Shown here one piece after another: positions 3,583 through 61,626 of a stretch of 63,197 nucleotides of DNA. Positions within the stretch are counted from its first letter, which is position 1. Every line of letters starts with the position of its first letter. The stretch is from the NCBI GenBank assembly GCA_001003605.1, contig LCPL01000005.1, forward strand, positions 1 through 63,197, read 5' to 3'. The notes beneath the pieces were generated by a model. It saw nothing but the letters and a program-made list of their open reading frames with translations, did not search any database and had not been told where the DNA came from. This stretch comes from Parcubacteria group bacterium GW2011_GWC2_48_17. GTDB taxonomy: Bacteria; Patescibacteriota; Minisyncoccia; Phycocordibacterales; UBA10002. Both the position numbers and the translations under genes were made by a program.

Positions 3583-3585
3583 TTA

Positions 3586-12602: not shown

Positions 12603-14665
<2,063 letters not shown>

Positions 14666-14666
14666 T

Positions 14667-15209
14667 TTAGTATCGCACCCTCAACGCTCTTTCCACTCTA
14701 GCGGGATTTGGTCCGACTCCGCAATCATTTCTGCCGCGAGATTCTATCACAGTAAAACCGGAAACGGTCTTGCCGACCGTGACTATCGCGCAACCCTTAG
14801 GCGTAAAATCGAGCGTGAATGTGCTCGTTGCCGCGGCAGTATTGCCGCTAACAAAAGACACTGAAACATTTGGTGCGCCGTTACAGCCAATAAAAGCGCG
14901 CCCTATGTCGTCGTAGGCAGACGGAAATACGAGTTCGGTCTTCCCTGCATTGATATCCCAATAAAGCGCGCACTCGATTCCAGTGTCAGCGGAAAAAAAC
15001 GCGTATTCGGATTCCTTGCCGGCCACTGAAAGAAGAATTTCCCTTATAGACATATGCGCGATTGCGAGGCCAAGGGAGAAAAGGAGGCTCGCGACCAGCA
15101 CGGCAAAGAGGATGGTGAAGCCCGAAGAAGCGTTTAGCGTGGAGCGTTTAGTGGAATAGTCGTAGACTGCGTTTAGAAGGTACGCGCATTTGTGTATTTC
15201 TCTTTTCAT
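14667..15209 (-). CDS. pilin-like protein (minor pilin or pseudopilin)
   Basis: The ASSG/FTILFAVLVASLLF hydrophobic N-terminus resembles a class III signal but lacks Glu+5. The long leader MKREIHKCAYLLNAVYDYSTKRSTLNASSG is shared with 15930..16592. Confidence 0.6.
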   Translation of the reverse strand: MKREIHKCAYLLNAVYDYSTKRSTLNASSGFTILFAVLVASLLFSLGLAIAHMSIREILLSVAGKESEYAFFSADTGIECALYWDINAGKTELVFPSAYDDIGRAFIGCNGAPNVSVSFVSGNTAAATSTFTLDFTPKGCAIVTVGKTVSGFTVIESRGRNDCGVGPNPARVERALRVRY

Positions 15210-15244
15210 TTTTTTACTAACCGCTTTACGCTAACCGCTAGACG

Positions 15245-15925
15245 CTAGTTCTGGATGTACCAATTAAATATATTCTCGCTAATAGTTGTCGTGCGAAGCC
15301 CTAGCGAACCGGCTCGCCAAGTCATGCTCACCGTTATTTTTGCTTCTACGTCATTCTGTATTTCTTCTACAAAAACCTTCCGAATTAAATCTGTTTTGGT
15401 CCACCCGCTGTCAGTTCGATGTCCAAACAATCCTGTAAACGAAATATTGGACCCGGTATATTGATATAGGGCGCAATTGTAGTTAGAAGGCCTACAACCT
15501 ATTATCTGCAGGCCCAGAGGCGCCGTCGAGTCAATACCACATCCTTCAACTTGTAGGCACTCGTTCAATCCTTGTAGCCAATTTGCGCCGCCTCCTTGTC
15601 CATCTATAGCATTTCCATCTCGAACGTTGCGAACGTATTCGATTGCCTCCTGCGCGAGATAAAAAGCGGTTATTTCATGGCGTGCCGCTTCCGTGGCGGC
15701 AAGGCCTTTCTCTGCGATGGTTAGCGGAGCCGTTAGGGAAAGCAACAGTATTGCGATTGCGACAAGGGTTTCAATGATGGTAAAACCTTTTTGAGATGAA
15801 GTATGAAGTATGCCCGCCCGACTGAACGATTCCAGTCGTTCGGGCGGGAAGTATGAAGTATGAAAAAGCCAAGAAAACTGATGTCTCTTTCGTCTTCCTT
15901 CCTTAATTCTTAATTCAGTATTCAT
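15245..15925 (-). CDS. type IV pseudopilin
   Basis: Prepilin motif QKG/FTIIETLVAIAILL. The start is set at the ATG at 15925 (MNTEL), just past the upstream stop. The leader of about 47 aa is encoded by a repeat element. Confidence 0.65.
   Translation of the reverse strand: MNTELRIKEGRRKRHQFSWLFHTSYFPPERLESFSRAGILHTSSQKGFTIIETLVAIAILLLSLTAPLTIAEKGLAATEAARHEITAFYLAQEAIEYVRNVRDGNAIDGQGGGANWLQGLNECLQVEGCGIDSTAPLGLQIIGCRPSNYNCALYQYTGSNISFTGLFGHRTDSGWTKTDLIRKVFVEEIQNDVEAKITVSMTWRAGSLGLRTTTISENIFNWYIQN
15798..15863. repeat. GC hairpin inside a GAAGTATG word array, within the pseudopilin leader coding region
   Basis: GAAGTATGAAGTATG-CCCGCCCGACTGAACGATTCCAGTCGTTCGGGCGGG-AAGTATGAAGTATGA. Confidence 0.7.
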
Positions 15926-15929
15926 AATT

Positions 15930-16592
15930 CTAGTTTTCAACATCCAACAGTCTCTGCGATACCATCGTTTCAATGCCAAAGCTCGATACTGTCTTGCTTT
16001 TGCCCTGCACAGAACCTTTCACTAGGATAAGAACGCGCGGCTGCTCTTTGTCCGAAGTTAAGGTTCCGTCAACGTAAAAGTTCAGTTGCTCGATATGAAT
16101 CTCTGGCGAGGTGATTGGCACGAATGTCGCGGGGTCAGCGAGAAGTCCTTCCTCTCCCGCTCCCACGACTGCCCTGTCAATCGTGCCGTAACTTTCAGTC
16201 ATAGGTGTGTATTTATACACCATACGTTTCCCATTGCGAGCCGTAAAGATAATTGAGGAGGCGGGATTTTGGGCGCAGTCGCGTGTTTCTGTAAGAGTGC
16301 CTTCTGTTATGTCGCAGTGGTAAAGAAAGCCGGTGCGAAGATTTCTCGAGATGTTTTCAAACGCGAAGTAAAGATTATTGACCACGGTCTTCTGTGAGCG
16401 GGCTTTGTGATTTGCTTCGAGGAGCGAAGCGAGACTACCGACTGATATGACCATGATAACCAGAAAAATACCAAACGCCACTATCATCTCCACGAGGGTA
16501 AATCCAGAAGAAGCGTTTAGCGTATAGCGTTTAGTGGAATAGTCGTAGACTGCGTTTAGAAGGTACGCGCATATGTGTATTTTTCTTTTCAT
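15930..16592 (-). CDS. type IV pseudopilin
   Basis: Prepilin motif SSG/FTLVEMIVAFGIFL with a 30 aa leader almost identical to that of 14667..15209. Confidence 0.7.
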   Translation of the reverse strand: MKRKIHICAYLLNAVYDYSTKRYTLNASSGFTLVEMIVAFGIFLVIMVISVGSLASLLEANHKARSQKTVVNNLYFAFENISRNLRTGFLYHCDITEGTLTETRDCAQNPASSIIFTARNGKRMVYKYTPMTESYGTIDRAVVGAGEEGLLADPATFVPITSPEIHIEQLNFYVDGTLTSDKEQPRVLILVKGSVQGKSKTVSSFGIETMVSQRLLDVEN

Positions 16593-16627
16593 GTTTTTAC
16601 TAACCGCTAGACGCTAATCGCTAACCG

Positions 16628-17344
16628 CTATTTAATGGATATTTGCCCAGTGTTGGCAACCTCGACTACCCGCTTATCTCCCGACGGAGAAATGACATAT
16701 ATTCGTGCCGCTTTATATTGATGACCAAAAACGCTTTGATTTGTCTTAATGATAGCATCAGGATTCGGACGCAAGAATGTGACGTCAAGATAAGTAATCG
16801 CTGGATTCGACGCGGGTAAAGAGAGCGTGTTGCATTCCTCATTCTTCTCGCTATCTGGAGCATCCCGTCCCAAATCTCCAGTAGGAAGTACTCCGCAAAA
16901 TTTGTATATGCGGTTTCCCTTCTCCAAAAGAAAGACGTTCATGCATTCGGTGGCACTAAGACATCCTGTAGTGTTGTACGCCGTCCCGTAAGACCCGTTT
17001 AGGACTGCGTCGCCACTCTCGCCTCCTTGGTCCGCAAAAAGCGCGTACGTGTTTAAGCTCTCGGAATCAAAGTGCAGTCCATATCCAACGTTGAAAGTCC
17101 CGGCCCCTCCGCCTTGGAATTCGTGAACGCTCACGCCGTAGCTTTGCGCCTGACGCAGTGATAAGGCGAGTTCGTACGCAAGCGTGGTAACAAAGAGTTG
17201 ATTGCTAACTTTTCTGTACGATAAAAGTATGAGAGTGGCTATGGTGCCAAAGAGCGCTATGGCGACTAGAAGCTCGACGAGCGTGAAGCCCCTTCGGGGA
17301 GAGAAGGTAGAAAGTAGAGGGTAGAGGGTAGAATGAGATTTCAT
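16628..17344 (-). CDS. type IV pseudopilin
   Basis: The internal ATG at 17344 gives MKSHSTLYPLLSTFSPRRG/FTLVELLVAIALFG. The longer ORF to 17626 overlaps pilD and is rejected. Confidence 0.7.
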   Translation of the reverse strand: MKSHSTLYPLLSTFSPRRGFTLVELLVAIALFGTIATLILLSYRKVSNQLFVTTLAYELALSLRQAQSYGVSVHEFQGGGAGTFNVGYGLHFDSESLNTYALFADQGGESGDAVLNGSYGTAYNTTGCLSATECMNVFLLEKGNRIYKFCGVLPTGDLGRDAPDSEKNEECNTLSLPASNPAITYLDVTFLRPNPDAIIKTNQSVFGHQYKAARIYVISPSGDKRVVEVANTGQISIK

Positions 17345-17358: not shown

Positions 17359-18213
17359 CTAGAAGCTGACAGCCAAAAGCTGATCTAAACCGGTTACATC
17401 CCACCCGAATAAATACACCAGAAACAAGCCGAATACCAAAAATGGGCCAAGTGGAAGTTCTGTCTTTGGACCAAGAGCGCTTAGTTTCATTTTGTAATTC
17501 GGTGACAGGATGTTCGACAAAAATGGCAGAAAGGCTTTGAGTAGAAGCGCGCCGAGAGCGAATGCCGCGCCGATCCAAAAACCGACAATAAGCGCGGAGA
17601 GACCCTTCGCGAAGCCCAAAAGCCACGGAAACAAGACGACGAGCTTCGCGTCACCGAGGCCCATCGCTCGCCCGCTTGAGAAAAACCACAGTAGAGCGAA
17701 AGGAGCCGCGATAAGAAAACCAACCCAGAAATCAAAGAAGTATGAAGTATGAAGTATGAAGTATGAATAAAGGAAAAGAAAAAAGGAAACAAATATGGCG
17801 CCGTAGACAAGTCTGTCGGGGATGATTTTGTGCCTGAAATCGTAAACGGAGATGGCGATAAGGAGAGACCAGAAGCAGAGAGAAAGTAGAAGGTAGAAGG
17901 TAGAAGGTAGAGAAAGAGAAGAAAGAATGAGGGAAGATTCTTTCCAGGCCACGCCGAAAAATACGAGGCCGGTGATAAGCTCGACCAAAGGGTATTGGAT
18001 GGAGATACTTCCCTTGCAGCCGAGGCACCGTCCTTTTTGGACCAAAAAGCTAAACAGCGGAAGAAGTTCAAACCAGCTCAAGGTCTTGCCGCAAGATAAA
18101 CATTTTGAGCGTCCGTTAAGTCCCTGCGCGCCATGTCGCAGGACGATTACATTCAGAAAACTTCCGACAATCGTGCCAAGCGCAAAGAAAAACAGGAGAA
18201 TAATTGTGGTCAT
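17359..18213 (-). CDS. pilD: prepilin peptidase / N-methyltransferase
   Basis: Cys motifs CLSCG and CLGCKG, and catalytic Asp contexts YDFRHKIIPD and GLGDAKLV. Polytopic membrane protein. Confidence 0.85.
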   Translation of the reverse strand: MTTIILLFFFALGTIVGSFLNVIVLRHGAQGLNGRSKCLSCGKTLSWFELLPLFSFLVQKGRCLGCKGSISIQYPLVELITGLVFFGVAWKESSLILSSLSLPSTFYLLLSLCFWSLLIAISVYDFRHKIIPDRLVYGAIFVSFFLFLYSYFILHTSYFFDFWVGFLIAAPFALLWFFSSGRAMGLGDAKLVVLFPWLLGFAKGLSALIVGFWIGAAFALGALLLKAFLPFLSNILSPNYKMKLSALGPKTELPLGPFLVFGLFLVYLFGWDVTGLDQLLAVSF

Positions 18214-20319: not shown

Positions 20320-20388
20320 GCGTGTAGCGTGTAGCGTGTAGCGTGTAGCGTGTCTGACTGTTTTGGACTTGCGTTACACGTTATACGA
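20320..20388. repeat. intercistronic word-repeat hairpin (GTGTAGCG)n ... CGTTACACGTTATACG
   Basis: GCGTGTAGCG x4 - loop TGTCTGACTGTTTTGGACTT - GCGTTACACGTTATACG. The arm ends 2 nt from the pilC ATG. Confidence 0.75.
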
Positions 20389-20401: not shown

Positions 20402-21460
20402 TTATAACAACCGGTCCATTATCTGCGGATTAGGCGAATAGGCAAAAGCATTTTCGGCGGTAATCTCCCCTCTACGCACCAAATCCGCGAGGCTTCTGTT
20501 CATATCGGTCATACCCTGCTCAAGTCCGGTTTCTATAACGGTATTTATTTCATGCGTTCGCTTCTCTCTTATAAGATTAGCGACGGCATTATTCGCGATA
20601 AGGAGTTCATAAGCGGGTATTAGTCCTCCGGATATTCTCGGCACCAAGCGCTGCGAGAAAACTCCCGTGAGAGAAGAGGCAAGCTGAAGTCGTATCTGCT
20701 CTTGCTGCCCAGGAGGAAAGATATCGATTATGCGGTCTATCGACTGAGCCGCGTTGTTTGTGTGAAGCGTAGAAAATATAAGGTGTCCGGTTTCAGCGGC
20801 GGTTACAGCTGAGCTGATTGTTTCCTGGTCGCGCATCTCTCCTATGAGCGCGACATTTACGTCTTCTCGAAACATAGATATGAGCGCCGTGCGGAAATCT
20901 TTCGTGTCAATGCGCACTTCGCGCTGGTCAATAATAGAGAGCTTCTCCTCATATACATACTCTACCGGGTCTTCAATCGTCATGATGTGTTCGGAGCGGC
21001 TTCCATTAATTATTTCTATAAGAGAAGCCAGTGTGGTTGATTTTCCGTGCCCCATTGGCCCCACAACAAGAAAAAAGCCTTGTCTTTTTTTGGTAAACTG
21101 CCCAAGCGTCTCTGGAAGATTGAGTTCTTTTAGGCTCGGGATCTTTCTGGGGATTAGCCGAAGCGCGATACCGATGTTTCCTTTTTCGAAATAGGCATTG
21201 CCTCTGAAGCGTACTCTGTCGCCAAAATTATATGAAAAATCGATTTCTTTATTCTGCAAGAAAAGTCTCCTATCCTCCGAAGAAAGAATTCCTTCAATAA
21301 ACGCCGACAAATTATCCGCAGTAAGCAAAGCCTTCTTTACGAGAGGCGTAATCCCTCCAGAAACGCGGAGCACGGGGTGACGGCCTACCAAGAGGTGGAG
21401 GTCGGACGCGCCCTCGTGAATGGTCGTTTCGATGAGATTTGTTAAAAGTTCTTTGGACAT
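20402..21460 (-). CDS. pilT: twitching motility retraction ATPase
   Basis: 352 aa with Walker A GPMGHGKSTT, an Asp box, Walker B and the His box of the PilT/GspE family. It lacks the long N-terminal domain of PilB. Confidence 0.85.
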   Translation of the reverse strand: MSKELLTNLIETTIHEGASDLHLLVGRHPVLRVSGGITPLVKKALLTADNLSAFIEGILSSEDRRLFLQNKEIDFSYNFGDRVRFRGNAYFEKGNIGIALRLIPRKIPSLKELNLPETLGQFTKKRQGFFLVVGPMGHGKSTTLASLIEIINGSRSEHIMTIEDPVEYVYEEKLSIIDQREVRIDTKDFRTALISMFREDVNVALIGEMRDQETISSAVTAAETGHLIFSTLHTNNAAQSIDRIIDIFPPGQQEQIRLQLASSLTGVFSQRLVPRISGGLIPAYELLIANNAVANLIREKRTHEINTVIETGLEQGMTDMNRSLADLVRRGEITAENAFAYSPNPQIMDRLL

Positions 21461-21535
21461 AGCGTGTAGCGTGTAGCGTGTAGCGTGTAGCGCGACTCTG
21501 GCGTTATACGCTTTACGTTACACGTTTTGCGTTAC
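21461..21535. repeat. intercistronic word-repeat hairpin (GTGTAGCG)n ... (CGTTAYACG)n
   Basis: AGCGTGTAGCG x4 - loop - GCGTTATACGCTTTACGTTACACGTTTTGCGTTAC lies between the receiver gene and pilT. Confidence 0.75.
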
Positions 21536-22048: not shown

Positions 22049-23761
22049 CTATAATTTATTCACTTCTTCCCATGGAATCTCGTGTTTAAAAGCCTTGATA
22101 ATGGCATCTTCACGCAAAGTAAGCATGCCTTGCTTTCTTCCGACACGCATAATCTCCGCTTCAGACGGATTCTTTAATATGACTCCCTCAAGTTCACGGT
22201 CCATCTGAAGAATCTCGAAGACTGCCGCTCTGCCGCGCGTACCTTTCGGGCAATCGGGCGTGATGTCAATTAGAAGTACGTCCTTTGAAAAAGGAATGTC
22301 TTTCTTAAAGGCATCCGACAGGTCGCTAAAGTCCTTGTCAATCGATGCCTTGATGCTACCTTCAACCGGCACGACTTTCCCCGTATTGGGACAAATGAGC
22401 TGTACGAGACGCTGGGCTATCGCGAGAATAAGTGTTGGCGCTATGAGAAACGGGTCAACGCCCATGTCGATTAGGCGCGGAATTACTCCGGCGGCGTTGT
22501 TGGTGTGGATGGTCGAGAATACGAGATGTCCAGTGAGCGCAGCCTGTACGGCAAGTTGCGCGGTTTCTTTATCGCGTATCTCACCCACCATGATTATGTC
22601 GGGGTCCTGCCTTAGCGTGTGCCGAAGGCCTGCCGCAAAAGTATACCCAATTTCAGGCCGTATTTGCGACTGACTTACGCCAGGGATGTTGTATTCTACT
22701 GGGTCCTCAAGCGAGAGTACATTGCTTTTATCGCGGTCTATTTCATTTAACATCGTATACAAAGTTGTTGATTTTCCTGAACCTGTGGGGCCGGAAATCA
22801 GCACCATGCCATACGGACGCTGAATAGCCTCGCGAATGAGAGCGAGATTTCTTTTGGAGAGCCCCATCTCCTCCAATGGCTTCACTCCCTTCTCGGTGTC
22901 CAAAATACGCATCACGGCCTTTTCTCCGTAATAAGAAGGAAATGTGGAAACACGAAAGTCAATGCGGTGTCCCTCTATACGCGCGCTGAAGCGTCCGTCT
23001 TGCGGTTTTCTTTTTTCATCGAGTTTCATATTCGAGAGAATTTTTATGCGCGCGAGGAGAGCTGCGTGTACTTTTGTGGGGAGTATGAGTGAAGTGTTCA
23101 GAACTCCATCTACTCTGAAACGAACGCGGATTTCATTCCCCATATGTTCAATGTGGATATCCGAGGCGTTGCCCTCGGCGGCATAGTGCAATATGGTGGC
23201 CACGATTTTAGTTACAGGAGCGTCTTCTGTAATGCGGGTTTCTGCGTTCGCTCCGATAGAAGAAGCTCCATGGGTGGACGATTCTTCAGGACTTAGTTCC
23301 GTGTCGAGCTCGGATAGCGCCTGGGTTACTTCGCCGGATAGACCTTTGTACGACTGCAGTACTCTTTCAAAATCATCCTCCGATATGAGGTACAATTTAT
23401 ACGGCATGCTGAGCTTGGAGGATATGAAATTGATAGCATCCATCGCCTCCAGATTGTCCGGGTCTACGATGCCAAGAAGAAGAGCGCCATCAGTAAGTCC
23501 GATAGGTACGAAGCGATAGAATGTAGCCGATTCCTCCGGAACATATTTTAATATTTCAAAAGAGATATCTTTGCCTTCTAGGCTCTGAAATGGAATGCCG
23601 TGGAGTTCAGCCTTACCCGCAAAAATGTCTTCGCGTTTTAAGCCGTAGTTAATAAGAGCGGTCTCAATGTCCCCGCCGAGCGAGTTTGAGCGTTCGGAAA
23701 GCGCTGGAATATCGGCTTCCGATATAATTCCCTTTTTAGTTAAAATCTCAAGTAGTGTCAT
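22049..23761 (-). CDS. pilB: type IV pilus assembly ATPase
   Basis: GspE N-terminal domain and Walker A GPTGSGKSTT. I prefer the ATG at 23761 (MTLLEIL). The GTG at 23806 used by the ORF track lies inside a leader element also found upstream of glmS and rpmI. Confidence 0.85.
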   Translation of the reverse strand: MTLLEILTKKGIISEADIPALSERSNSLGGDIETALINYGLKREDIFAGKAELHGIPFQSLEGKDISFEILKYVPEESATFYRFVPIGLTDGALLLGIVDPDNLEAMDAINFISSKLSMPYKLYLISEDDFERVLQSYKGLSGEVTQALSELDTELSPEESSTHGASSIGANAETRITEDAPVTKIVATILHYAAEGNASDIHIEHMGNEIRVRFRVDGVLNTSLILPTKVHAALLARIKILSNMKLDEKRKPQDGRFSARIEGHRIDFRVSTFPSYYGEKAVMRILDTEKGVKPLEEMGLSKRNLALIREAIQRPYGMVLISGPTGSGKSTTLYTMLNEIDRDKSNVLSLEDPVEYNIPGVSQSQIRPEIGYTFAAGLRHTLRQDPDIIMVGEIRDKETAQLAVQAALTGHLVFSTIHTNNAAGVIPRLIDMGVDPFLIAPTLILAIAQRLVQLICPNTGKVVPVEGSIKASIDKDFSDLSDAFKKDIPFSKDVLLIDITPDCPKGTRGRAAVFEILQMDRELEGVILKNPSEAEIMRVGRKQGMLTLREDAIIKAFKHEIPWEEVNKL

Positions 23762-23860
23762 GGCTGATTTTTTTAACGAGCGGAGCGAGTTTTTAAAAAT
23801 CGCCACCCCGTTAAATCCCGCTCCGCGGGAATCCGCCTTTGGCGGATTATTTAACGGGGT
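23762..23860 (-). promoter_or_regulatory. shared 5' leader cassette (three-way junction), copy A, upstream of pilB
   Basis: The minus strand reads ACCCCGTTAAATA-[ATCCGCC AAA GGCGGAT]-[CCCGC GGA GCGGG]-ATTTAACGGGGT-GGCGATTTTT...AAAAATCAGCC-ATG. Confidence 0.65.
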
Positions 23861-23922
23861 AATGTTCGGCAGCCGCAGTTTCGATATTCAGAGACTGAAT
23901 CCCGAAACTGCGGGCCGAGCCA

Positions 23923-24348
23923 TTATTCTATATCAAATCCATCCGAAACTGGCGCTTTTGGCGCGGAGGTCGGCTTGCTTGACGCGCTCTCTGTGGCCTT
24001 TGGCTTGGTAGAACTTCCTCCTTTCGTATCTGCTGTCTCCTCGAATGAAGCGAACGGATTGCGGCGACCTATCGGCTGAGGCGCTATCTCGACTCCGAAA
24101 TCTTTCAAACTGTTGAATACTGGGTCGTCAAAAATAGTTTTATCCAGCTTGGTGGACTTCAGTTTAGCAAGCGCGGCAAGAAGTTCGCGGCCAAGTTTGG
24201 CGTCAAGCGGAGAAATCGGAAGTGTGGTTATCTCCCCGGAATCCGAACGCTTGTTTGAAAGTGAATAGAATAAAAATACAATCAGCAAAACGACCATAAA
24301 CAAGAACGCCAAAATCGTCTTTTTATCTATATTTCCAAAAATGTTCAT
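23923..24348 (-). CDS. single-pass membrane protein of the pilus locus (PilP-position), function unknown
   Basis: 141 aa with an N-terminal TM helix and a Ser/Thr/Pro/Lys-rich tail. It sits between pilO and pilB. Confidence 0.45.
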   Translation of the reverse strand: MNIFGNIDKKTILAFLFMVVLLIVFLFYSLSNKRSDSGEITTLPISPLDAKLGRELLAALAKLKSTKLDKTIFDDPVFNSLKDFGVEIAPQPIGRRNPFASFEETADTKGGSSTKPKATESASSKPTSAPKAPVSDGFDIE

Positions 24349-24404
24349 GGCTGATTTCGTATAGTTAAAGAGTGAAAAAATGAGAGGCTATTTTGAGATG
24401 GATT

Positions 24405-35775: not shown

Positions 35776-35963
35776 TTTTACAAGGTCGGACCTTGTAAAT
35801 AATGCCGGGTAAACCCGGTTTTCGTCGAGTTTTTGCGACATTCCCATTCGTCTTAGAGTTGTAGTGGTTACCGAGAGCAACCCCAATAGTAGTCCGCCTG
35901 AGGCGGACACTACGAGGTGGCTGTTGCAGAACACAACAGAGTACAGCTAAAGTATATGTTGTG

Positions 35964-36079
35964 ACCCTGTTAAATCCCAGCCGGAGGCTGGGAATCCGCC
36001 CGCGGCGGATTATTTAACAGGGTGGCGATTTTGTAACATCTCATCTTCGCTATGCTCGATTCGATTAACAAAATCAGCC
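35964..36079 (+). promoter_or_regulatory. shared 5' leader cassette (three-way junction), copy B, upstream of glmS
   Basis: ACCCTGTTAAAT-[CCCAGCC GGAG GCTGGG]-A-[ATCCGCC CGC GGCGGAT]-TATTTAACAGGGT-GGCGATTTT...ACAAAATCAGCC-ATG. Confidence 0.65.
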
Positions 36080-37912
36080 ATGTGCGGCATTATTGGATAC
36101 GTCGGGAAAAAAGAGGCGCTGCCCATCATTCTCGATGGGCTTCATCGGCTTGAATATCGCGGATATGACAGCGCCGGAGTCGCCGTCCAAAGTAGCGTGG
36201 GGATAAAGACCGCTCGCGCGGTTGGCAAAGTTGCCGCGCTTGCCGAGCGATGTGAAGGGAAAAGCTTGGCGGGAACGGCAGGCATCGGCCACACGCGCTG
36301 GGCCACTCATGGCAAACCGTCTGAGAAGAACACTCATCCGCATACCGATTGCACCAAGTCTTTTTTTATCGCGCATAACGGCATCATAGAAAATTTCCAA
36401 GAACTCAAGGAACAATTATCAAAAATCGGACATACATTCAAGTCTGAAACGGATTCGGAAGTAATCGCGCACCTCATAGAAGACGCGTACAAAAAAACAC
36501 TGAACCTTGAGCAAGCGGTGCAATCTGCTCTACGAAAGCTCCGCGGGACATATGGGCTTGCGGTGATTTCAAGTTTGGAACCGGAAAGAATCATTGCCGC
36601 CCGCATGGGGTCTCCGATTGTGATTGGGTTTGGCGAGGGAGAAAACTTTGTTGCCTCCGATGCCTCCCCGCTTCTCTCTTACACGCGAACGATGCTCTAT
36701 CTTGAAGACGGCGAGATGGCGACCTTAACTCCGCAGGCGCATACGGTGCGTACGCTTAACGACAAAATTGTAATGAGGAGCGCCGAGATGATTGAGTGGG
36801 ACGCGAATAAAATACAAAAGGGCGGATTCTCGCATTTTACATTAAAGGAGATTATGGAGGGACCTAAGGTGATTGAAAATACTCTTCGCGGCCGACTTAT
36901 TGCCGAGGGTGGCCTCGCAAGGCTCGGGGGACTCCAAACTATCTCCGAAAAGCTCCGCACGGCGAAACGTATTATCATCATCGCGTGTGGCACCGCTTTT
37001 CACGCTGCGCAAGTCGGCGAATATATGCTGGAGGAATACGCTGGAATACCGGTAGAAGTGGAGTTTGCTTCGGAATTCAGGTATCGGAAGCCCATTATAA
37101 ATAGCGAAACCATCGTTATCGCCATCTCACAGTCTGGCGAGACCGCGGATACCCTTGAAGCTATACGTGAGGCGAAGCGAAAGGGCGCGACGGTACTCGG
37201 TATAGTAAATATCGTCGGTTCTACAATCGCGCGCGAAGTAGATGCCGGCGTCTACAACCATGCCGGACCGGAGGTGAGCGTTCTATCGACCAAAGCGTAC
37301 ATTTCACAGCTTGTGGTGCTTGCCCTGCTCACCATCCACATAGGGAGAGAGCGGCAGATGTCACTCTCCGTAGGGAGGCGAATAGCGAAAGAGCTTCAAG
37401 AACTTCCCAAGAAAATGGAAAAGATATTTGAAAGCGCGAAAAATATAAAAAGTCTCGCGAAAAAATACGCGAAGTACGAGCATATGCTCTATCTTGGACG
37501 AAAATATAATTTTGCGACCGCCTTTGAAGGCGCGCTTAAAGTGAAAGAAGCGTCATACATCCACGCAGAAGGGTGCGGCGCTGGAGAAATGAAGCATGGA
37601 TTTATCGCGATGATAGACAAGGAGTTTCCGACCGTTGCTATGGCGCTCCAAGATAGCGTGTATGATAAGATGCTGTCAAACATACAGGAGATTAAAGCGC
37701 GAAGCGGACGAGTCTTTGCGATAGCAACGGAGGGGGATAAAAAAGTGGCCAAATTCGCAGATGATGTGGTGTTCATTCCCCAAACGCTTGAAATGCTCTC
37801 CCCCATTCTCGCCGTGATTCCGCTACAACTCTTTGCGTATTATTTAACGCTTGAACGCAACCTCGATCCTGATAGGCCGAGGAACTTGGCGAAAAGCGTA
37901 ACGGTGGAATAG
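36080..37912 (+). CDS. glmS: glutamine--fructose-6-phosphate aminotransferase
   Basis: 610 aa with the N-terminal nucleophile MCGIIGY, two SIS domains and the C-terminal KSVTVE. Confidence 0.95.
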   Translation: MCGIIGYVGKKEALPIILDGLHRLEYRGYDSAGVAVQSSVGIKTARAVGKVAALAERCEGKSLAGTAGIGHTRWATHGKPSEKNTHPHTDCTKSFFIAHNGIIENFQELKEQLSKIGHTFKSETDSEVIAHLIEDAYKKTLNLEQAVQSALRKLRGTYGLAVISSLEPERIIAARMGSPIVIGFGEGENFVASDASPLLSYTRTMLYLEDGEMATLTPQAHTVRTLNDKIVMRSAEMIEWDANKIQKGGFSHFTLKEIMEGPKVIENTLRGRLIAEGGLARLGGLQTISEKLRTAKRIIIIACGTAFHAAQVGEYMLEEYAGIPVEVEFASEFRYRKPIINSETIVIAISQSGETADTLEAIREAKRKGATVLGIVNIVGSTIAREVDAGVYNHAGPEVSVLSTKAYISQLVVLALLTIHIGRERQMSLSVGRRIAKELQELPKKMEKIFESAKNIKSLAKKYAKYEHMLYLGRKYNFATAFEGALKVKEASYIHAEGCGAGEMKHGFIAMIDKEFPTVAMALQDSVYDKMLSNIQEIKARSGRVFAIATEGDKKVAKFADDVVFIPQTLEMLSPILAVIPLQLFAYYLTLERNLDPDRPRNLAKSVTVE

Positions 37913-38003: not shown

Positions 38004-39218
38004 ATGCGCGCATTAGTATTTGATACAACTCTCGGCTCATGGGACGACACACGCGGTTTTGAATTGCAGGATGTCCCGGAGCCAGTGCTTGATGAGAAGA
38101 AGGACCCGACTGACGCTGACAAAGTGCTGTTAAGGGTGCATTACGCGGGCATCTGCGGAACCGACCGCGGCATTTGGAACCGCGCCGCGTTTCGGGACCA
38201 AATCCTCGGGAGCATCACAGCGGAAGGAAACACTCGGCGGATCTTGGGGCATGAATTCTTCGGCGAGGTTGTCGCACTTGGAAGTAAAGCGTCTGCATTA
38301 GCGCCATCCCCCTTAATAAGGGGGGTGCCGAGGTCTTCCGAGGAGGGGGTTGTTGCTCCGCTCAAAATCGGCGATTTTGCCGCACCCGAATCGCATGTTG
38401 TTTGCAACAAATGTTTCCAGTGCTTGCGTGGCGAGAAGCATGTCTGCACAAATGAAAAAATTCTAGGCATCTCGCATGACGGCGGCTTCGCCGAATTTGT
38501 AAAATTGCCAGCGCACATAATCTGGAAGACCGACACCTCAAAGATTCGGCCGGAGCTCGGAGCGATGCAAGAGCCGTTCGGCAACGCCGTGCATGCCGCG
38601 AGCAAAGTCCCGCTTCAGGGAAAAACAATCGCCATCTTCGGCCTCGGACCAATCGGCCTGTTCCTAATACTGGTGGCACGCGGTCTTGGCGCAACGACCA
38701 TCATTGGCGTTGAGCCGAATCCGATATCACAAGAAATGGCGAGGCGCCTCGGTATCGACTATATTATTCCTCTTTCTCCCCGACAGAAGGACACCGCTGC
38801 GCACCACCGCGATGAGGCCGTCATCAAGAAAATCGAAGAGCTGACGGAGGGCTTGGGAGTAGATGTATCCTTTGAAATGGCGGGATTCAATTCATCATTT
38901 AACAACTGCTTGTTTGCAACGCGCCGAGGAGGAGATATGATTGCTTTCGGTATTAAAATGGGCGACTTCGTGCTTGAAAACTATAACCGATTCATCATTC
39001 GAGGAATCACCATGCACGCGGTCATTGGGCGCCGACTTCCGGAAACATGGGAGATGACGCAGAGACTTTTCTCGGATACGAAAAATAAAATTCAGGAGAA
39101 TATATGGAACATCATTCTCGCGCAGGGTAAAGATACGATTCTTTCGCTTAAGGACTATACTAAAGAGCGATTCGAGGAGATGATGGCGAAGCACCCCAAA
39201 ATACTCATAGAGATATAA
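38004..39218 (+). CDS. tdh: L-threonine 3-dehydrogenase (Zn-dependent MDR family) with an internal insertion
   Basis: GICGTDRGIW, GHEFFGEVV, the structural-zinc Cys cluster CNKCFQCLRGEKHVC, and linkage to kbl. There are about 22 extra residues near 38290..38355. Confidence 0.8.
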   Translation: MRALVFDTTLGSWDDTRGFELQDVPEPVLDEKKDPTDADKVLLRVHYAGICGTDRGIWNRAAFRDQILGSITAEGNTRRILGHEFFGEVVALGSKASALAPSPLIRGVPRSSEEGVVAPLKIGDFAAPESHVVCNKCFQCLRGEKHVCTNEKILGISHDGGFAEFVKLPAHIIWKTDTSKIRPELGAMQEPFGNAVHAASKVPLQGKTIAIFGLGPIGLFLILVARGLGATTIIGVEPNPISQEMARRLGIDYIIPLSPRQKDTAAHHRDEAVIKKIEELTEGLGVDVSFEMAGFNSSFNNCLFATRRGGDMIAFGIKMGDFVLENYNRFIIRGITMHAVIGRRLPETWEMTQRLFSDTKNKIQENIWNIILAQGKDTILSLKDYTKERFEEMMAKHPKILIEI

Positions 39219-39320
39219 CATACGAAACAACGAATTATGCGAATATACGAATTTGCTACGAATAAGATTTCGGATTCGTAGCCATTCGTTGGTTTTTAAT
39301 TCGTATTTTCGTATATCACC
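39219..39320 (+). repeat. CGAATA/TTCGTA word-repeat element abutting the kbl start
   Basis: CATACGAAACAACGAATTATGCGAATATACGAATTT-GCTACGAAT-AAGATTTCGG-ATTCGTAGC-CATTCGTTGGTTTTTAATTCGTATTTTCGTATATCACC-ATG. Confidence 0.75.
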
Positions 39321-40565
39321 ATGTATTCAAACGAACTTAAAACCCAAATAGAAAAGGAACTCCAGGCCATGCGCGATGGGGGAATGTTCAAGGTGGAAAA
39401 GACTATTGAGGGACATCCAGGCACGGAGATAAAGGTTGACGGGAAAAAGCTCATAAACCTTTGCGCCAACAATTACCTCGGCGCCTCCCAGCAAAAGAAA
39501 GTTATAAAAGCCGCTCAAAAAGCATTGAAAGAATATTCGCTCGGCTTGAACAGCGTGCGCTTTATCGTCGGCACCACCGACCTGCACAAAAGACTTGAAG
39601 CGGCTATATCGAAGTTCTTCCAAACAGAAGACACTATATTGTATACTTCCTGTTTTGACGCGAACACTGGACTTTTTGAAGTCCTACTCACAGAGGAAGA
39701 CGCTATATTTTCCGATGAGCTGAATCATGCCTCCATCATTGACGGCGTGCGACTCTGTAAGGCCGAGCGTTTTCGTTTCGCTCACGGCAACATGGAGGAA
39801 CTTGAGAAACATCTCATTAAAGCAAAGGGCGCTCGGAGAAGACTTGTGGTTACTGATGGCGTCTTCTCCATGGATGGAGAAATAGCGAAGCTTGATGAAT
39901 TAAGGGCGCTTACGGATAAATATGACGCCATGCTCGTCGTGGACGATTCGCACGGAACTGGAGTACTCGGCAAGACCGGCCGCGGCAGTATTGAAGAAAA
40001 AGGAATCTTGGGCAAAGTAGATATACTTACCGGAACATTCGGAAAGGCGCTCGGCGGCGCTGGCGGCGGATTTACGACGGGACGCAAGGAAGTGATTGAT
40101 ATTCTTCGCCAGCGTAGCCGCACCTATCTCTTTTCAAACTCGCTTATGCCGGCCATTGCTGGAGCCGCGTTGTATGTAATAGAGCATTTCGATAAGGAGT
40201 TTTTGCCACTAAAGGAAAAGCTCACTGAAAACACAAAATATTTCAGAACAAAATTGGAAACATTGGGTTATACGTTGGGAGGTACTCCTTCTCTTTCTTC
40301 AGTTAAGGATGAAGGATTAAAGATTAAGGATTCTGCCTCCCACCCCATCACCCCCATCATGACCATGGATGAGCGAAAAACCATGGCGCTCGCGGATGAA
40401 CTTTTTAAGGAAGGCGTATATGTGCGGGGCTTCGCGTACCCCGTGGTGCCGAAAGGAAAAGGGAGAATCCGCGTGCAGATTTCCGCCGCACATACAAAGA
40501 AGCAGCTTGACGCAGCACTCGGGGCGCTGGAACGCGCAGGCAGGAAGCTGAAGATTATAAAATAA
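39321..40565 (+). CDS. kbl: 2-amino-3-ketobutyrate CoA ligase (glycine C-acetyltransferase) with an internal insertion
   Basis: Alpha-oxoamine synthase family with the PLP-lysine context GTFGKALGG and the C-terminal YPVVPKGKGRIRVQISAAH. There are about 16 extra residues near 40283..40337. Confidence 0.9.
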   Translation: MYSNELKTQIEKELQAMRDGGMFKVEKTIEGHPGTEIKVDGKKLINLCANNYLGASQQKKVIKAAQKALKEYSLGLNSVRFIVGTTDLHKRLEAAISKFFQTEDTILYTSCFDANTGLFEVLLTEEDAIFSDELNHASIIDGVRLCKAERFRFAHGNMEELEKHLIKAKGARRRLVVTDGVFSMDGEIAKLDELRALTDKYDAMLVVDDSHGTGVLGKTGRGSIEEKGILGKVDILTGTFGKALGGAGGGFTTGRKEVIDILRQRSRTYLFSNSLMPAIAGAALYVIEHFDKEFLPLKEKLTENTKYFRTKLETLGYTLGGTPSLSSVKDEGLKIKDSASHPITPIMTMDERKTMALADELFKEGVYVRGFAYPVVPKGKGRIRVQISAAHTKKQLDAALGALERAGRKLKIIK

Positions 40566-40574: not shown

Positions 40575-40646
40575 AGAGCTGTTTAGCTTATTAGCTTGTT
40601 AGAAAAGATGGGCTAGGAAGCTAGTGGGCTAGGAAGCTAAAAAGCT
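40575..40646. repeat. intercistronic word-repeat hairpin (TTAGCT / AAGCTA words)
   Basis: GCTGTTTAGCTTATTAGCTTGTTAG - loop - GGCTAGGAAGCTAGTGGGCTAGGAAGCTAAAAAGCT ends at the yvcK ATG. Confidence 0.75.
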
Positions 40647-41636
40647 ATGAAAACTGTTGTTATCATCGGCGGCGGCACCGCGACTTTTACTCTACTGAAG
40701 GGACTTCGACAGTTCCCAACTAATAATATCGTCATCGTCTCTACTGCTGACGATGGGGGTTCGACTGGTATTCTAAGAAAAGAGCTTGGCGTGATGCCTA
40801 TGGGGGACATCAGGCAGTGTCTCATCGGCCTTTCATACACCGTACCGGCGCTTCAGAAGCTTTTCACATACCGCTTCGAAAGTAGCTCACTTAAGGGGCA
40901 TAGTGTTGGTAATATCTTGCTTGCCGCACTTGAAAAAGTGACGGGAAGTCCTGAAGGAGCAATCGCCGAAGCTGCTCGCCTTCTCAATGTGCGAGGCGAG
41001 GTGCTTTTTGTTTCAAAACAACCGACCACGCTTTCGGCAAAGCTTTCCGACGGCACGCTTATCAAAAGCGAGCATGAGCTCGATGAACCGGTGACAAAAA
41101 AGCGCGCGCCTATCGCGAAACTCATGCTCTCAAAGGCTGACGCGAATCCGCGTACCATCGATGCAATCGCAAGGGCCGACGCAATCATTCTCGGACCAGG
41201 AGATCTCTATACCTCCACTTTCCCCAATCTCCTCGTACCCGGCGTTGCTGAAGCGATCAAGACATCAAGGGCGAGGAAGGTGCTTATCACCAATATCATG
41301 ACCAAACTCGGTCAGACCGATGGATTTACCGCCTCCGATTTTGTGCGCGAAGCGAATATGTATCTGGGGGCGGACAAAGGAGTGTCGGTCATCGATACGG
41401 TCATTGTCAATACTAAAAAACCCTCGTCGGAAGCGCTTGTACTGTATAAAAAGGAAAAATCGTCGTTCGTCGAACTTGATAGTGATGCCCTTAAAAAGAT
41501 TGGTGTAGATGTTATTTCGGATGCAGTTATCTCAAATCAAATCCATAAAAAGCAAAATGGGGACATCCTAAAGCGAAGTATTGTCCGGCACGACCCTCTA
41601 AAAACCGCGGAGATTATTTGGAAGCTGATAAAGTAG
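40647..41636 (+). CDS. yvcK: YvcK/CofD-like gluconeogenesis factor family protein
   Basis: N-terminal VVIIGGGTATFTLLKGL and LGPGDLYTSTFPNLLV motifs. Confidence 0.8.
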   Translation: MKTVVIIGGGTATFTLLKGLRQFPTNNIVIVSTADDGGSTGILRKELGVMPMGDIRQCLIGLSYTVPALQKLFTYRFESSSLKGHSVGNILLAALEKVTGSPEGAIAEAARLLNVRGEVLFVSKQPTTLSAKLSDGTLIKSEHELDEPVTKKRAPIAKLMLSKADANPRTIDAIARADAIILGPGDLYTSTFPNLLVPGVAEAIKTSRARKVLITNIMTKLGQTDGFTASDFVREANMYLGADKGVSVIDTVIVNTKKPSSEALVLYKKEKSSFVELDSDALKKIGVDVISDAVISNQIHKKQNGDILKRSIVRHDPLKTAEIIWKLIK

Positions 41637-49615: not shown

Positions 49616-50038
49616 GGGGATGACAGGCATAGACATGTGGTCTCCTTCTTTCCGCGCATTGTGGAACTCCAGTAATTCCTTAAACTGCTGGAACAATTAA
49701 GTGCAAAAACCTTAATTTCAAAAGCTAAGTCTATCGTCTCACCATATTTTGGTGAACGCGGGCTCGCTTTCGCTTACGCTTCGGCGTAAGTGACATCTAT
49801 TTCCCCGACGTCCGATAGGGATACATAGGTGTTATAGATTCGGAATCGAGCGTGCCGCAGGTAGTCGTAGACTATCTCTTTCTCGGCTCACGCTTTAACT
49901 TTAGAGAATCGGCATCAAGACGCTTCTGTTACCCTTTTAGTCTTGATGTTTAAAACCCGCAAGGGTAAAGAGTAACTACGCAATGTAGAACCGGAAAAAA
50001 GAATCATGTGCACGCGCGTTCGATTCGCGCCATCTCCA
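49616..50038 (+). ncRNA. ssrA: tmRNA
   Basis: The 5' GGGGATG pairs with the 3' CATCTCC (G3-U70), followed by A. T-arm GCGCG TTCGATT CGCGC. Candidate tag frame 49724..49789: AKSIVSPYFGERGLAFAYASA-stop. Confidence 0.85.
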
Positions 50039-50132
50039 TTCGATTCGCTTGTATCAGAATACAAGCTCACTTGTGGTAAATCACTGCAAATACACCACCA
50101 GAAATGGCATAGTTAATGAGCATCATTGTCGC

Positions 50133-56078: not shown

Positions 56079-56591
56079 TTGGCCACCATAAGAATTCGGA
56101 TAAATCATCAAATACGAGCTCCAGAACTGCGGGTCATTGGACCAGTAGGAGAAAACATAGGGGTTGTCCCCCTTCAGGAAGCTCTCAGCAAGGCCACGGA
56201 AGCAGGCCTTGATTTGATTGAAATATCCCCGAGTGCCACGCCTCCAGTTGCAAAGATTATGGACTATGGTAAGTTTCAGTACTCTGAAAACAAGAAACAA
56301 AAGGCCGCGAAAGCAAAGGTGCATACGGTAGAGGTCAAAAATATTCAGATAAAAATAGGAACGAGCGAGCACGACTTAGAGCTAAAGGCAAAACGCGTCG
56401 GTGAATGGCTATCTGAAGGGAATCGGGTAAAGATAGACCTTTTCCTTGTTGGCCGGTCAAAGTATATGGAATTCAAATTCCTGCAAGAGCGGCTAGCGCG
56501 AATCCTTAAGCTGATACCGATGGAATATAAAGTCGCTGACCCAATCAAGAAGGGTATGAAAGGGCTGACGATAATCATAGAGAAACAATGA
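56079..56591 (+). CDS. infC: translation initiation factor IF-3
   Basis: RINHQIRAPELRVIG plus conserved N- and C-domains. There is no in-frame ATG. The start is TTG at 56079, or ATA/ATT a few codons later. A non-AUG start is usual for infC. Confidence 0.9.
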   Translation: MATIRIRINHQIRAPELRVIGPVGENIGVVPLQEALSKATEAGLDLIEISPSATPPVAKIMDYGKFQYSENKKQKAAKAKVHTVEVKNIQIKIGTSEHDLELKAKRVGEWLSEGNRVKIDLFLVGRSKYMEFKFLQERLARILKLIPMEYKVADPIKKGMKGLTIIIEKQ

Positions 56592-56614
56592 GCGTAGCGA
56601 ATATGTTTCTCATG

Positions 56615-56710
56615 ACCCTGTTAAATCCCGCTAAAAAGCGGGCGCCCGCAGCGGGCGATTTAACAGGGTGATGATTTTCAACATTCGCTTCGCTCATAAG
56701 AAAATCAATC
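56615..56710 (+). promoter_or_regulatory. shared 5' leader cassette (three-way junction), copy C, upstream of rpmI
   Basis: ACCCTGTTAAAT-[CCCGC TAAAAA GCGGG]-[CGCCCGC AGC GGGCG]-ATTTAACAGGGT-GATGATTTT...AGAAAATCAATC-ATG. Confidence 0.65.
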
Positions 56711-56890
56711 ATGAAAACCAACAAATCATTCACAAAGCGTCTCAGGGTAACCAAGAACGGCAAAATCATGATGCGTGGCAAGGGACAGAATCATTTCAAC
56801 GCCAAGGCGAGGCGTCGAGCCCAGCTCGGAAGGAAGCGCATGGTTTCCTTGCATATGAAGAAAGGAGATATCGCCCGTTTTTTAAGTTAA
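56711..56890 (+). CDS. rpmI: 50S ribosomal protein L35
   Basis: 59 aa ORF below the track threshold: MKTNKSFTKRLRVTKNGKIMMRGKGQNHFNAKARRRAQLGRKRMVSLHMKKGDIARFLS. It lies between infC and rplT. Confidence 0.85.
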   Translation: MKTNKSFTKRLRVTKNGKIMMRGKGQNHFNAKARRRAQLGRKRMVSLHMKKGDIARFLS

Positions 56891-57003
56891 ACATACGAAC
56901 AACGAATTTTACGAATATACGAATTGCTACGAAACAGAAGTGACTTAATTCTTATTCGTAGCCATTCGCAGGACTTTAATTCGTATTTTCGTATAGCAAA
57001 TTT
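56891..57003 (+). repeat. CGAATA/TTCGTA word-repeat element abutting the rplT start
   Basis: CATACGAACAACGAATTTTACGAATATACGAATT-GCTACGAA...TTCGTAGC-CATTCGCAGGACTTTAATTCGTATTTTCGTATAGCAAATTT-ATG. Confidence 0.75.
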
Positions 57004-61051: not shown

Positions 61052-61626
61052 TTACTCGGATGTTCCCTAGAACGAATCTAGGTGGGTGTTCTCAATTGAA
61101 TGTAAGAGAACCAATGAAGGTTCTGCAGCAAGCAATGATTCGAACTCCCTGAAAAATTGTTATAGAGGTAACATCTCAAGTAACCTGAATCAGTATAACA
61201 TGTAACCGATAACACGTAACTGGAACTGGAACCAGAGCAGATTTCTTGATAATTTCAAGCGTCTTGATTTCTGGTTACCGTTACTAGTTCCAGTTACAAG
61301 TTCGGCTGGAGTACAACCAATCCGCCACCCACATGGGGTTGGCGGACGGTTTCATGGTCCCCCGACAAGCATAGAGCGCATATGTTTATTCTTATCCCGC
61401 ACCGTAGCCCAAGGGCTTGCGTGTAGCAAGGGATGATTTTTTAAATTATTTTAGGCTCACTTATCAGGAGACAGTGTCATCATTATACCCCTCATATAAC
61501 GAAACAAAGGTCAAGAAGTTCATAACCTGTTTATAAAAAGTGGAAAGCAATAAAAATCTCTCGCCTGCGTATGGAAGCAAGACTGTGGATAATTGAGGCC
61601 GGCAAAAGACTTGACAAGTTTCAGGA

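Follow-up and report, generated by a model that had tools for sequence, protein, structure and literature searches.

The 63,197-nt stretch of DNA analysed here (the window; contig LCPL01000005.1, positions 1 to 63,197 of the forward strand, from Parcubacteria group bacterium GW2011_GWC2_48_17) harbors three copies of an intergenic cassette abutting the start codons of genes for a PilB/GspE-family ATPase (pilB-like), GlmS and ribosomal protein L35 (rpmI). The cassette is a composite of a palindrome, designated S1, and a hairpin, designated R, often with an additional mirror hairpin, designated L. The finding holds up, extends far beyond what the sequence alone could show, and comprises a new cross-phylum palindrome family, resembling Rickettsia palindromic elements (RPEs) and repetitive extragenic palindromic (REP) sequences, together with a lineage-wide start-codon hairpin cassette in Parcubacteria without an anti-Shine-Dalgarno (anti-SD) sequence; no description of the cassette was found in the literature (literal-sequence and keyword searches) or in Rfam. 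As to function, we lean, with a little less than even confidence, toward R being an RNA leader hairpin that would govern translation initiation independently of a Shine-Dalgarno (SD) sequence, with S1 as a co-opted selfish palindrome. Five facts jointly suggest that R is a helix tied to the translation start, and neither a promoter hexamer nor inert selfish DNA, namely its phasing with the AUG, the selection on its pairing despite loss of a -10-like hexamer, its conserved single-stranded loop, the set of genes that it precedes, and the SD-less host.

The original prediction described three copies of about 100 nt with identical orientation relative to the downstream gene, and these were recovered at 23759-23860 (minus strand), 35964-36082 (plus strand) and 56615-56713 (plus strand), referred to below as copies A, B and C, with an alignment of about 100 nt running through to the ATG. 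Their components are as follows.

Copy A, 23873-23913, minus strand: alternative left module, a hairpin CCGCAGTTTCG...CGAAACTGCGG followed by CTGCCGAACATT, which replaces hairpin L
Copy A, 23805-23860, minus strand: S1 palindrome, ACCCCGTTAAAT/ATTTAACGGGGT
Copy A, 23762-23804, minus strand: hairpin R, GGC:GCC, GATTTTT/AAAAATC, loop with TCGCTCCGCTC, 63 bits against covariance model R1
Copy A, 23759-23761, minus strand: ATG of the pilB-like ATPase gene, the true start (an ATG stands right after R in more than 100 cassettes)
Copy B, 35964-36023, plus strand: S1 palindrome, inner hairpins inverted in order relative to copy A
Copy B, 36024-36079, plus strand: hairpin R with an enlarged loop, GGC:GCC, stem GATTTTGT/ACAAAATC, loop with TCGCTATGCTC, 32.1 bits against R1
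Copy B, 36080-36082, plus strand: ATG of glmS (gene 36080-37912), residue 2 being the catalytic Cys
Copy C, 56580-56611, plus strand: hairpin L, stem GAGAAACA/TGTTTCTC, assigned from the sequence, with the same arm in many related loci
Copy C, 56615-56669, plus strand: S1 palindrome, outer stem ACCCTGTTAAAT/ATTTAACAGGGT and two GC hairpins
Copy C, 56670-56710, plus strand: hairpin R, GAT:ATC (-3 to -1), GATTTTC/GAAAATC, bulged A, loop with TCGCTTCGCTC, 65.8 bits against R1
Copy C, 56711-56713, plus strand: ATG of rpmI (L35, gene 56711-56890)

The 12-mers ACCCYGTTAAAT and ATTTAACRGGGT occur exactly at only three sites in the window, each time as an inverted pair, and exact matches to GGGTGRYGATTTT and AAAATCARYCATG are likewise limited to the three cassettes. 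RNAfold reproduced the fold described earlier: two GC hairpins enclosed by an outer stem and, 3' of them, another hairpin, GATTTT../..AAAATC. Relative to dinucleotide-shuffled sequences, the copies have z-scores of -5.6 to -7.9. Since GGC or GAT, the triplet directly following the outer stem, pairs with the triplet preceding the ATG, the second hairpin ends at position -1. Within the window, the covariance model of R detected exactly these three copies and one mirror copy on the opposite strand (56573-56620). The inner hairpins had been said to differ between copies with their pairing kept; the pairing indeed holds, whereas their independence does not, as the hairpin pair of copy A equals that of copy B in inverted order (AATCCGCC..GGCGGATT forms hairpin 1 in copy A and hairpin 2 in copy B), indicating that the palindrome was flipped relative to its flanks. 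At the glmS locus, a check for strain-level polymorphism found four identical assemblies.

GlmS, IF3 and L20 matched their profiles above the curated cut-offs, and the ATPase downstream of copy A belongs to the PilB/GspE family; L35 matched only weakly and its identity was accepted because of the infC-rpmI-rplT synteny. Two GTG starts inside the cassettes, suspected to be artefacts, proved to be so: the one at 23806 lengthens the pilB-like open reading frame (ORF) upstream in the same frame, and the one at 56668 opens a 91-aa ORF in a frame other than that of rpmI. The idea that the cassette supplies the start codon was not sustained, since the ATG-TGC of GlmS is its native N-terminus. The glmS ribozyme (RF00234) and the L20 leader (RF00558), which had gone unrecognised at two of these sites, were not found there by Rfam either: scanned with Rfam 15 models at gathering thresholds (cmscan), the window gave only a transfer-messenger RNA (tmRNA), six tRNAs and an S-adenosylmethionine (SAM) riboswitch, and nothing at the cassettes. 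A scan of four related loci at E-value <= 1 was equally empty at the cassettes except for a sub-threshold MIR2599 match over the palindrome of locus L103 (28.9 bits against a gathering score of 120, E = 0.11), which is read as chance.

Beyond the window, R was searched for in metagenome contigs with the pattern GATTTT-N2-14-TCGCTNNGCTC-N1-12-AAAATCANNCATG, yielding at least 118 loci. R is a hairpin of 11 bp with a bulged A and the loop TCGCTnnGCTC, its foot occupying position -1 of the ATG. An ORF follows directly in 117 non-redundant copies among the matches listed, a spacing that the search pattern required, and in those matches R always has the same orientation relative to the gene, at zero offset. 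The original prediction of a portable module at a fixed position before start codons is thus supported by at least 118 further copies of R with abundant compensatory changes; additional copies and covariation had been set beforehand as its test, and both were found in abundance. In contrast, no specificity for pilB, glmS and rpmI was seen, as the same R precedes dozens of different housekeeping genes, including rpsL, rpsS, rplP, rpmA, rpmG, rpmH, nusA and mraZ. Eight of the products were verified above the curated NCBIfam cut-offs (S19, L33, L16, MraZ, L27, NusA, L34 and S12). Others appear recognisable by their N-termini, among them more ribosomal proteins, NusB/NusG, LepA, TypA, EF-P, SSB, RecR, FtsA/FtsX, MurG, ClpP, DnaJ, GAPDH, Ndk and Obg.

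The helix of R covaries along its length. The linker and pre-ATG triplets change together (GGC/GCC, GAT/ATC, GGT/ACC, GAC/GTC and GAA/TTC), the two bases past GATTTT pair with those ahead of AAAATC, and the loop-adjacent base covaries as well. In an alignment of 108 R sequences (A2), on which the covariation statistics are based, 91.7% of cells are paired, and 189 double-sided changes were counted vs 72±9.5 in column shuffles (0/500), with pairing falling to 39-60% when partners are slid by one column. Because double-sided changes exceed those of the shuffles and the signal collapses on sliding, the pairing in R is considered to be under selection. Moreover, model R1 retrieved extra copies outside the search pattern, with compensatory changes in the A/T runs (GATTTG/CAAATC, GTTTTTT/AAAAAAC and AATTTAT/ATAAATT) that keep the helix and lose the -10-like hexamer; a leaderless promoter in R is contradicted by such compensated stems. 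Loop variants among the copies found only by R1 retain two TCRYT repeats. In other R families, the CGCT..GCTC loop is kept on different stems; these hairpins come after S1 and stop 0-3 nt short of the ATG. A boxA/NusB-type site in the loop was also rejected, since only GCUC is common to both and the bases that follow covary with the other side of the loop. As a separate observation on A2, the third base after GATTTT is nearly always identical to the third base before AAAATC (T/T 44, A/A 54), these column pairs being complementary in 15 cases vs 57 expected, which may reflect two major sub-families or selection for an open loop. In the window, GAAATCAGCC ATG at 24346-24358 (minus strand) opens the gene upstream of pilB (23923-24348); its last 10 nt match the cassette, without an R stem or S1, and the site may be a remnant or chance.

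S1 has a distribution of its own. One genome per GTDB species was scanned with the pattern ACCCNGTTAAAT-N20-50-ATTTAACNGGGT, which occurred at at least 120 loci in at least 132 instances, against a chance expectation of about 1 (estimate: 596 Gb x 31 spacings / 4^22). Hosts among the matches listed are mostly Patescibacteria (Parcu-, Nomura-, Moran-, Nealson-, Staskawicz-, Kaiser-, Doudna- and Saccharibacteria), with further carriers among metagenome-assembled genomes of Omnitrophota, WOR-3, Thermodesulfobacteriota, Bacteroidales, Cloacimonadota and Calditrichaceae; a phage origin was discarded, IMG/VR having given a single match. S1 is 45-75 nt in size, and its arms pair perfectly over 12 bp; in about 115 of 132 copies among the matches listed, TTY/RAA lengthens them to 15 bp. 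The interior holds two, one or no hairpins in 86, 38 and 8 of the 132 copies listed, has no conserved sequence and leaves zero bases unpaired at the junction. A junction of the ligand-binding type is therefore not indicated, given the lack of unpaired junction bases and of conserved loops. The 3' hairpin of the window cassette recurs in about 8 of 100 S1 loci among the matches listed, and copies were also found in tandem and nested. No correlation between internal orientation and gene direction was seen across the loci listed. The bases just outside the arms are T..G in 41 copies and C..A in 36, with Watson-Crick combinations in 14 of 127 (matches listed); they form one asymmetric flank, TTC^AAA, readable on either strand, whose A-rich side tends to point toward the downstream gene. 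Generic copies have the TTY flank upstream and the RAA flank downstream, the reverse of a terminator.

A search for target-site duplications of S1 gave a weak direct-repeat signal (~39% vs ~33% identity), and the WOR-3 copies are flanked by 6-bp repeats of the CGCAGA type. No autonomous element with a transposase was found between distant arms in about 240 loci, where partnerless arms enclose at most about 290 nt. As side observations on its sequence, two resemblances were noted, each over 8 of 11 positions and perhaps coincidental: that of the generic 5' arm with its flank, TTCACCCTGTTA (e.g., window 35961-35975), to the canonical 16S 3' tail TCACCTCCTTA, and that of the 3' arm, TAACAGGGTGA (e.g., window 36012-36028), to the long SD TAAGGAGGTGA. 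A DNA-uptake sequence was dismissed, as the 12-mer is never single or intragenic in the window. Integron attC sites have the order 5'-RYYYAAC (R'') ... GTTRRRY (R')-3', contain extrahelical bases and lie downstream of cassette ORFs near intI; here the heptamers GTTAAAT ... ATTTAAC run in the opposite order on both strands and the neighbours are core genes, and this candidate was rejected as well.

S1 also lies in frame within protein-coding genes. Pfam domains continue across the insert in a GT4 glycosyltransferase, Amidase (GatA), DsbD_2 and RmlD, an Aminotran_5 match is split in two by it, and further copies occupy the C-terminal linker of FtsZ and the region between PolA domains. The length of intragenic cores is 1 mod 3 in 8/8 cases, vs 64/135 overall among the matches listed. 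Insert-free GatA homologues (77% identity) are 19-25 aa shorter, and one GatA orthologue has an arms-only version (ACCCTGTTAAAT-TTGACAGGGT) where locus L003 carries the 58-nt element. Given its occurrence in either orientation and in frame within real genes, S1 behaves as a selfish repeat akin to RPEs, REP sequences or miniature inverted-repeat transposable elements (MITEs) would, and it has no aptamer look. Apart from this, GatA of Nealsonbacteria-type genomes (L003 6848-6905; L244 P0003; L245 P0009) contains in-frame palindromic inserts in two variable linkers, and another GatA carries a different palindromic repeat of about 50 nt twice (aa 247 and 359).

The view of the cassette as a single structured unit consequently had to be given up: S1 is independent and orientation-insensitive and occurs without R, in other phyla and in coding sequence, and other ACCC...GGGT stems stand in for it at orthologous sites. 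Among the matches listed, R always directly follows a stem ACCC (or ATCC/GCCC)...GGGT with no spacer; this stem ranges from 31 to about 260 nt over many unrelated sequence classes, the window-type palindrome accounting for 20 of 126 R copies listed. At orthologous rpmI sites, the window has its 55-nt palindrome, locus L235 (with a hairpin L identical to that of the window) a 104-nt stem and locus L155 a 99-nt stem; S1 is thus exchangeable, with its closing pairs kept. R, by comparison, persists at orthologous sites in divergent genomes (before rpmI, rplP, rpmA, rpsC and others) while S1 is swapped, and in many loci S1 without R lies 6-19 nt from the ATG.

Hairpin L, found in many copies with the consensus GAAAAAT-AAC-GAGCGnAGCGA-cTAT-ATTTTTC, has a loop that is the reverse complement of the R loop and an A/T stem that is flipped; because of this flip it carries TAnnnT in a strand-asymmetric manner. 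TAnnnT (TATAAT, TATATT or TATGTT) starts 10-14 nt before S1 in 53/69 cassettes and in 39/40 when the L loop is present, vs 14/69 on the mirrored R side, and the first base of S1 is A in 67/69. No -35 element stands at canonical spacing in L. The stop codon of the upstream co-directional ORF usually falls within or just before L, 84 of 103 cassettes follow a co-directional ORF (matches listed), and loci L128 and L167 have three and four cassettes, respectively, between successive ribosomal-protein genes of a kind normally transcribed together. Among the window copies, only copy C has the upstream mirror arm: its loop ATGAGCGTAGCGAATA corresponds to the R loop in reverse complement, the arm holds the infC stop TGA (56589-56591) and a -10-like TATGTT (56602-56607) 7 nt ahead of S1, and its reverse strand scores 28 bits against R1. 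The left flank of the copy A type (...TGCCAAACMTT|ACCC) recurs in loci L177, L180, L203 and L224. Neither a target-site duplication nor an autonomous partner was seen for L/R.

The initiation context is devoid of SD signals. An SD-like tetramer (GGAG/GAGG/AGGA) at -15 to -1 precedes 0/57 window genes, and the 16S 3' tails examined, in L134 (5351-7020; a locus that also carries the cassette) and L058 (3178-4691, minus strand), lack CCUCC, reading GGAUUAAUUCAAUG and GGAUCACUACAUUUU instead of GGAUCACCUCCUUA. Tsurumaki et al. (2022, PMC9297842) report that about half of Parcubacteria have lost the anti-SD and do not settle how initiation works in them. Between the 16S rRNAs of L134 and L058 and either the R loop or the pre-AUG region, only chance-level matches of 7-11 nt including G-U pairs turned up. 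SD frequencies in cassette loci and in core-only loci were compared crudely, and the result was too noisy for use. A sigma-70 consensus scan (-35 and -10 hexamers with a spacing of 16-18 nt) found no promoter above chance in the cassettes, although the -10-like TAnnnT of L lies 5-7 nt ahead of S1 in 53/69 copies; the -10-like hexamer of R is lost in compensated variants. An intrinsic-terminator scan did not call S1 on the sense strand, where the T-run starts 5 nt after the stem (criterion 0-2 nt); the terminator-only alternative to the original prediction is for this reason not supported. Among the window ORFs in general, position -1 is C or T in 45/57, and TAnnnT starting at -12/-13 is mildly enriched, which hints that some window genes are leaderless.

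On the reading that we favour, the cassette would be an intergenic unit composed of modules, in a lineage of the Parcubacteria/Paceibacteria type that does without SD sequences and whose checked relatives lack the 16S anti-SD. R would be the functional core of the cassette, making up the final ~45 nt of the mRNA leader once transcribed and controlling SD-less initiation: the AU-rich 11-bp stem would hold the bases from -1 upstream and present the AUG at the foot of the helix, with the single-stranded pyrimidine loop and its two TCRYT repeats as a putative docking or recognition site. This loop could serve as a standby site for the 30S subunit or its protein bS1, or be bound by an RNA-binding regulator that acts in trans on a housekeeping regulon. 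S1 would form a very stable ACCC...GGGT clamp stacked on R, free in sequence and, in the window copies, apparently built from the widespread selfish palindrome; its role is likely structural, insulating R from upstream sequence, and it may be the protective 5'-terminal stem of the transcript. Where present, L may supply a -10 element, and since its TAnnnT lies about 7 nt before the first A of S1, downstream transcription may begin at S1.

Several points weigh against this reading. The RNA-level role of R is something we infer from sequence, and neither stem has an excess of G-U over A-C mismatches (S1 16 vs 23; R ~9 vs ~17), a symmetry that is atypical of selected RNA helices and fits DNA palindromes. 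A helix over -1 to -11 would classically inhibit initiation rather than promote it, and the R loop has no convincing complementarity to the 16S rRNAs of L134 and L058. Only 3 of about 60 window genes bear a cassette, the others having different upstream repeats, and it therefore cannot be the sole start signal. L lacks a canonically spaced -35, and copies A and B lack L altogether. In addition, positions GATTTT, TCGCT, GCTC, AAAATCA and CATG of R were fixed by the search pattern, and their conservation is partly an ascertainment effect. A bolder variant, to which we give a distinctly smaller though still appreciable chance, is that in Parcubacteria without the 16S anti-SD the mRNA brings along the helix required by the ribosome, the S1/R stack being a cis-encoded substitute for the SD:anti-SD pairing, whose R loop would recruit the 30S subunit (for example through bS1 or the conserved helix h26) as a general portable start signal. 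Such a signal would derive in part from domesticated selfish palindromes; the closing pairs ACCC(Y)/(R)GGGU of S1, taken with their flanks, resemble the canonical 16S tail and a long SD at 8 of 11 positions each.

Alternatively, the cassette could be RNA punctuation, with L-S1-R cut by an endonuclease into monocistronic mRNAs that start at or near the AUG and initiate in a leaderless manner, the enzyme being an RNase III-like one on the long S1 helix or, as with Cas6 and CRISPR repeats, a loop-specific one acting at the 3' foot of R. This is unlikely in our judgement. The foot of R at position -1, the conserved loop, bulged A and fixed stem length typical of protein-recognised hairpins, the cassettes between normally co-transcribed ribosomal-protein genes in L128 and L167, the upstream stop within L, and an SD-less genome in which the mild TAnnnT enrichment suggests leaderless starts would all suit it; yet no nuclease emerged as a candidate, the distance to the ATG is 3 nt rather than 0 in other R families, and where S1 alone lies 6-19 nt from the ATG a cut at its foot gives no 5'-AUG. 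Equally improbable to us is an action at the DNA level, in which S1 would terminate the upstream gene, R or L would be a promoter with its start at the ATG or at S1, and the palindromy would reflect protein binding or a cruciform rather than RNA folding. Compensated R stems that lose the -10-like hexamer and keep the helix (ACAAAT, AAAAAC) speak against it, as does the covariation of the pre-ATG triplet with a linker 40 nt upstream, a pairing for which promoters have no need. Furthermore, the loop of copy B is 14-17 nt larger, breaking the -35/-10 spacing; S1 lies 6-12 nt from the ATG in other loci, leaving no room for a promoter; and the consensus scans and the distant T-run described above offer no promoter or terminator. 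In favour of the DNA-level view are the exact spacing to the ATG, which suits a leaderless promoter, the nAAAAT of R at -11 to -6, the TATAAT-like hexamers of L 7 nt before S1 with their strand asymmetry (53 vs 14), the symmetric mismatch spectrum (G-T ~ A-C), and the AGCG/CGCT core that the R/L loops share with heptamer arrays upstream of other genes, possibly DNA-binding sites.

Less probable again is that the whole cassette is selfish MITE-like DNA with no host function, tolerated between genes, L and R being long imperfect terminal inverted repeats and S1 a nested palindrome. L and R are indeed mirror images around S1, the stems are nearly perfectly Watson-Crick with symmetric mismatches, and S1 is clearly promiscuous, with copies of either orientation, tandem and nested ones across many phyla and in-frame insertions in seven gene types; against this, R stands at zero offset and in constant orientation before more than 100 different conserved genes, is retained at orthologous positions while S1 is exchanged, and forms with L stems that are systematically flipped (A-run/T-run) and not simple inverted copies, with no L/R target-site duplication or autonomous partner seen. 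Finally, a riboswitch-like or protein-binding three-way junction common to pilB, glmS and rpmI, which the leader position and a predicted junction stable in all three copies might suggest, strikes us as very improbable indeed, because the junction and loops have no unpaired or conserved nucleotides, the inner hairpins vary freely in sequence and number and can be flipped, unrelated stems replace the junction at orthologous sites, it also occurs within coding regions, and Rfam has no match.

The start-codon hairpin that we favour and its palindrome show likenesses to several known systems. RPEs, reportedly described by Ogata and colleagues in 2000, are matched by S1 in being short multi-copy palindromes found between genes and in frame in conserved genes with the ORF intact; S1 differs in sequence, in hosts (Patescibacteria and several other phyla), in its much smaller size, and in its perfect 12-15-bp arms around a variable interior, with some copies recruited as a clamp beside a start-codon hairpin. 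S1 shares the behaviour of RPEs; sequence homology to their families is not expected, and membership is not claimed. REP sequences of Proteobacteria (including BIMEs and REPINs) are mobilised by RAYT transposases, have a GTAG head and are strictly extragenic. S1 is similar in being an abundant GC-rich palindrome in operons, in either orientation and sometimes tandem or nested, with possible effects on the mRNA stability or translation of neighbouring cistrons; its head, however, is ACCC without GTAG, its arms are common across phyla and not species-specific, and copies lie within ORFs. No RAYT/IS200-type gene was seen in the loci examined, where no systematic search was made. Like MITEs such as the Correia elements of Neisseria, S1 has terminal inverted repeats, many copies, insertions near gene starts and possibly expression signals, but it has no clear target-site duplication, prefers the flank TTC^AAA, has no autonomous element in the ~240 loci and is unconserved inside.

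Structured SD-less initiation regions and operators include the E. coli rpsA leader, the MS2 coat-protein operator hairpin and ribosome standby sites. R is comparable in placing a hairpin with a conserved single-stranded loop at SD-less start codons of highly expressed genes, and its weak AU-rich stem might be opened by the 30S subunit or held shut by a protein; it differs in having no homology to them and in being one module for dozens of unrelated genes across a lineage, not a gene-specific structure. In the same way, S1 recalls the ompA leader stem-loop and the RNase III sites of phage T7 as a very stable helix at the start of or between cistrons, and if L is a promoter, the conserved A of S1 could be +1, as in an ompA-type leader; unlike those, S1 is built from a mobile palindrome.

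How ribosomes of Parcubacteria without an anti-SD find their start codons is not known (PMC9297842), and a covarying hairpin at the AUG makes this question directly testable. The results also indicate that reduced genomes carry tiny cross-phylum palindromes that insert between genes and in frame in essential genes, that such palindromes can mislead gene callers, as at the two spurious GTG starts, and that some of them appear to have been recruited into expression cassettes.

Other repeats were noted around the cassettes. Intergenic regions of the window are rich in tandem arrays of period 7/8, with units such as GCGTGTA, TAGCGTG, AGAAGGT, GAAGTAT, CTAACCG and GCTAGGAA, at 20320-20353, 21460-21492, 17302-17333, 17737-17767, 17881-17911, 14590-14663, 16600-16630, 40609-40651 and about 20 more sites. 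Several reach a start codon, such as those at 20318 and 21460 (both minus strand), where GCTACAC is repeated four to five times directly ahead of the ATG; the arrays often form inverted pairs across a gene boundary, and many units share the AGCG/CGCT core with the L/R loops. A second palindromic intergenic family, ACGAAT.../...ATTCGT, is present at 39217-39322, 56893-57002, 61626-61715, 62325-62377 and 3537-3583, one copy running from the end of rpmI to the rplT ATG (57004) and another ending at the ATG at 39321; with its left arm on the end of the preceding gene and its right arm directly against the ATG, the family has a layout like that of L-S1-R. The window further contains the SAM riboswitch (6486-6607, minus strand) upstream of the minus-strand genes 6189-6404 and 5008-6186, the tmRNA gene (49616-50041, plus strand), and a 140-nt repeat (89% identity) at 15111-15250 and 16494-16633 that spans the start and the upstream region in each of two paralogous genes on the minus strand.

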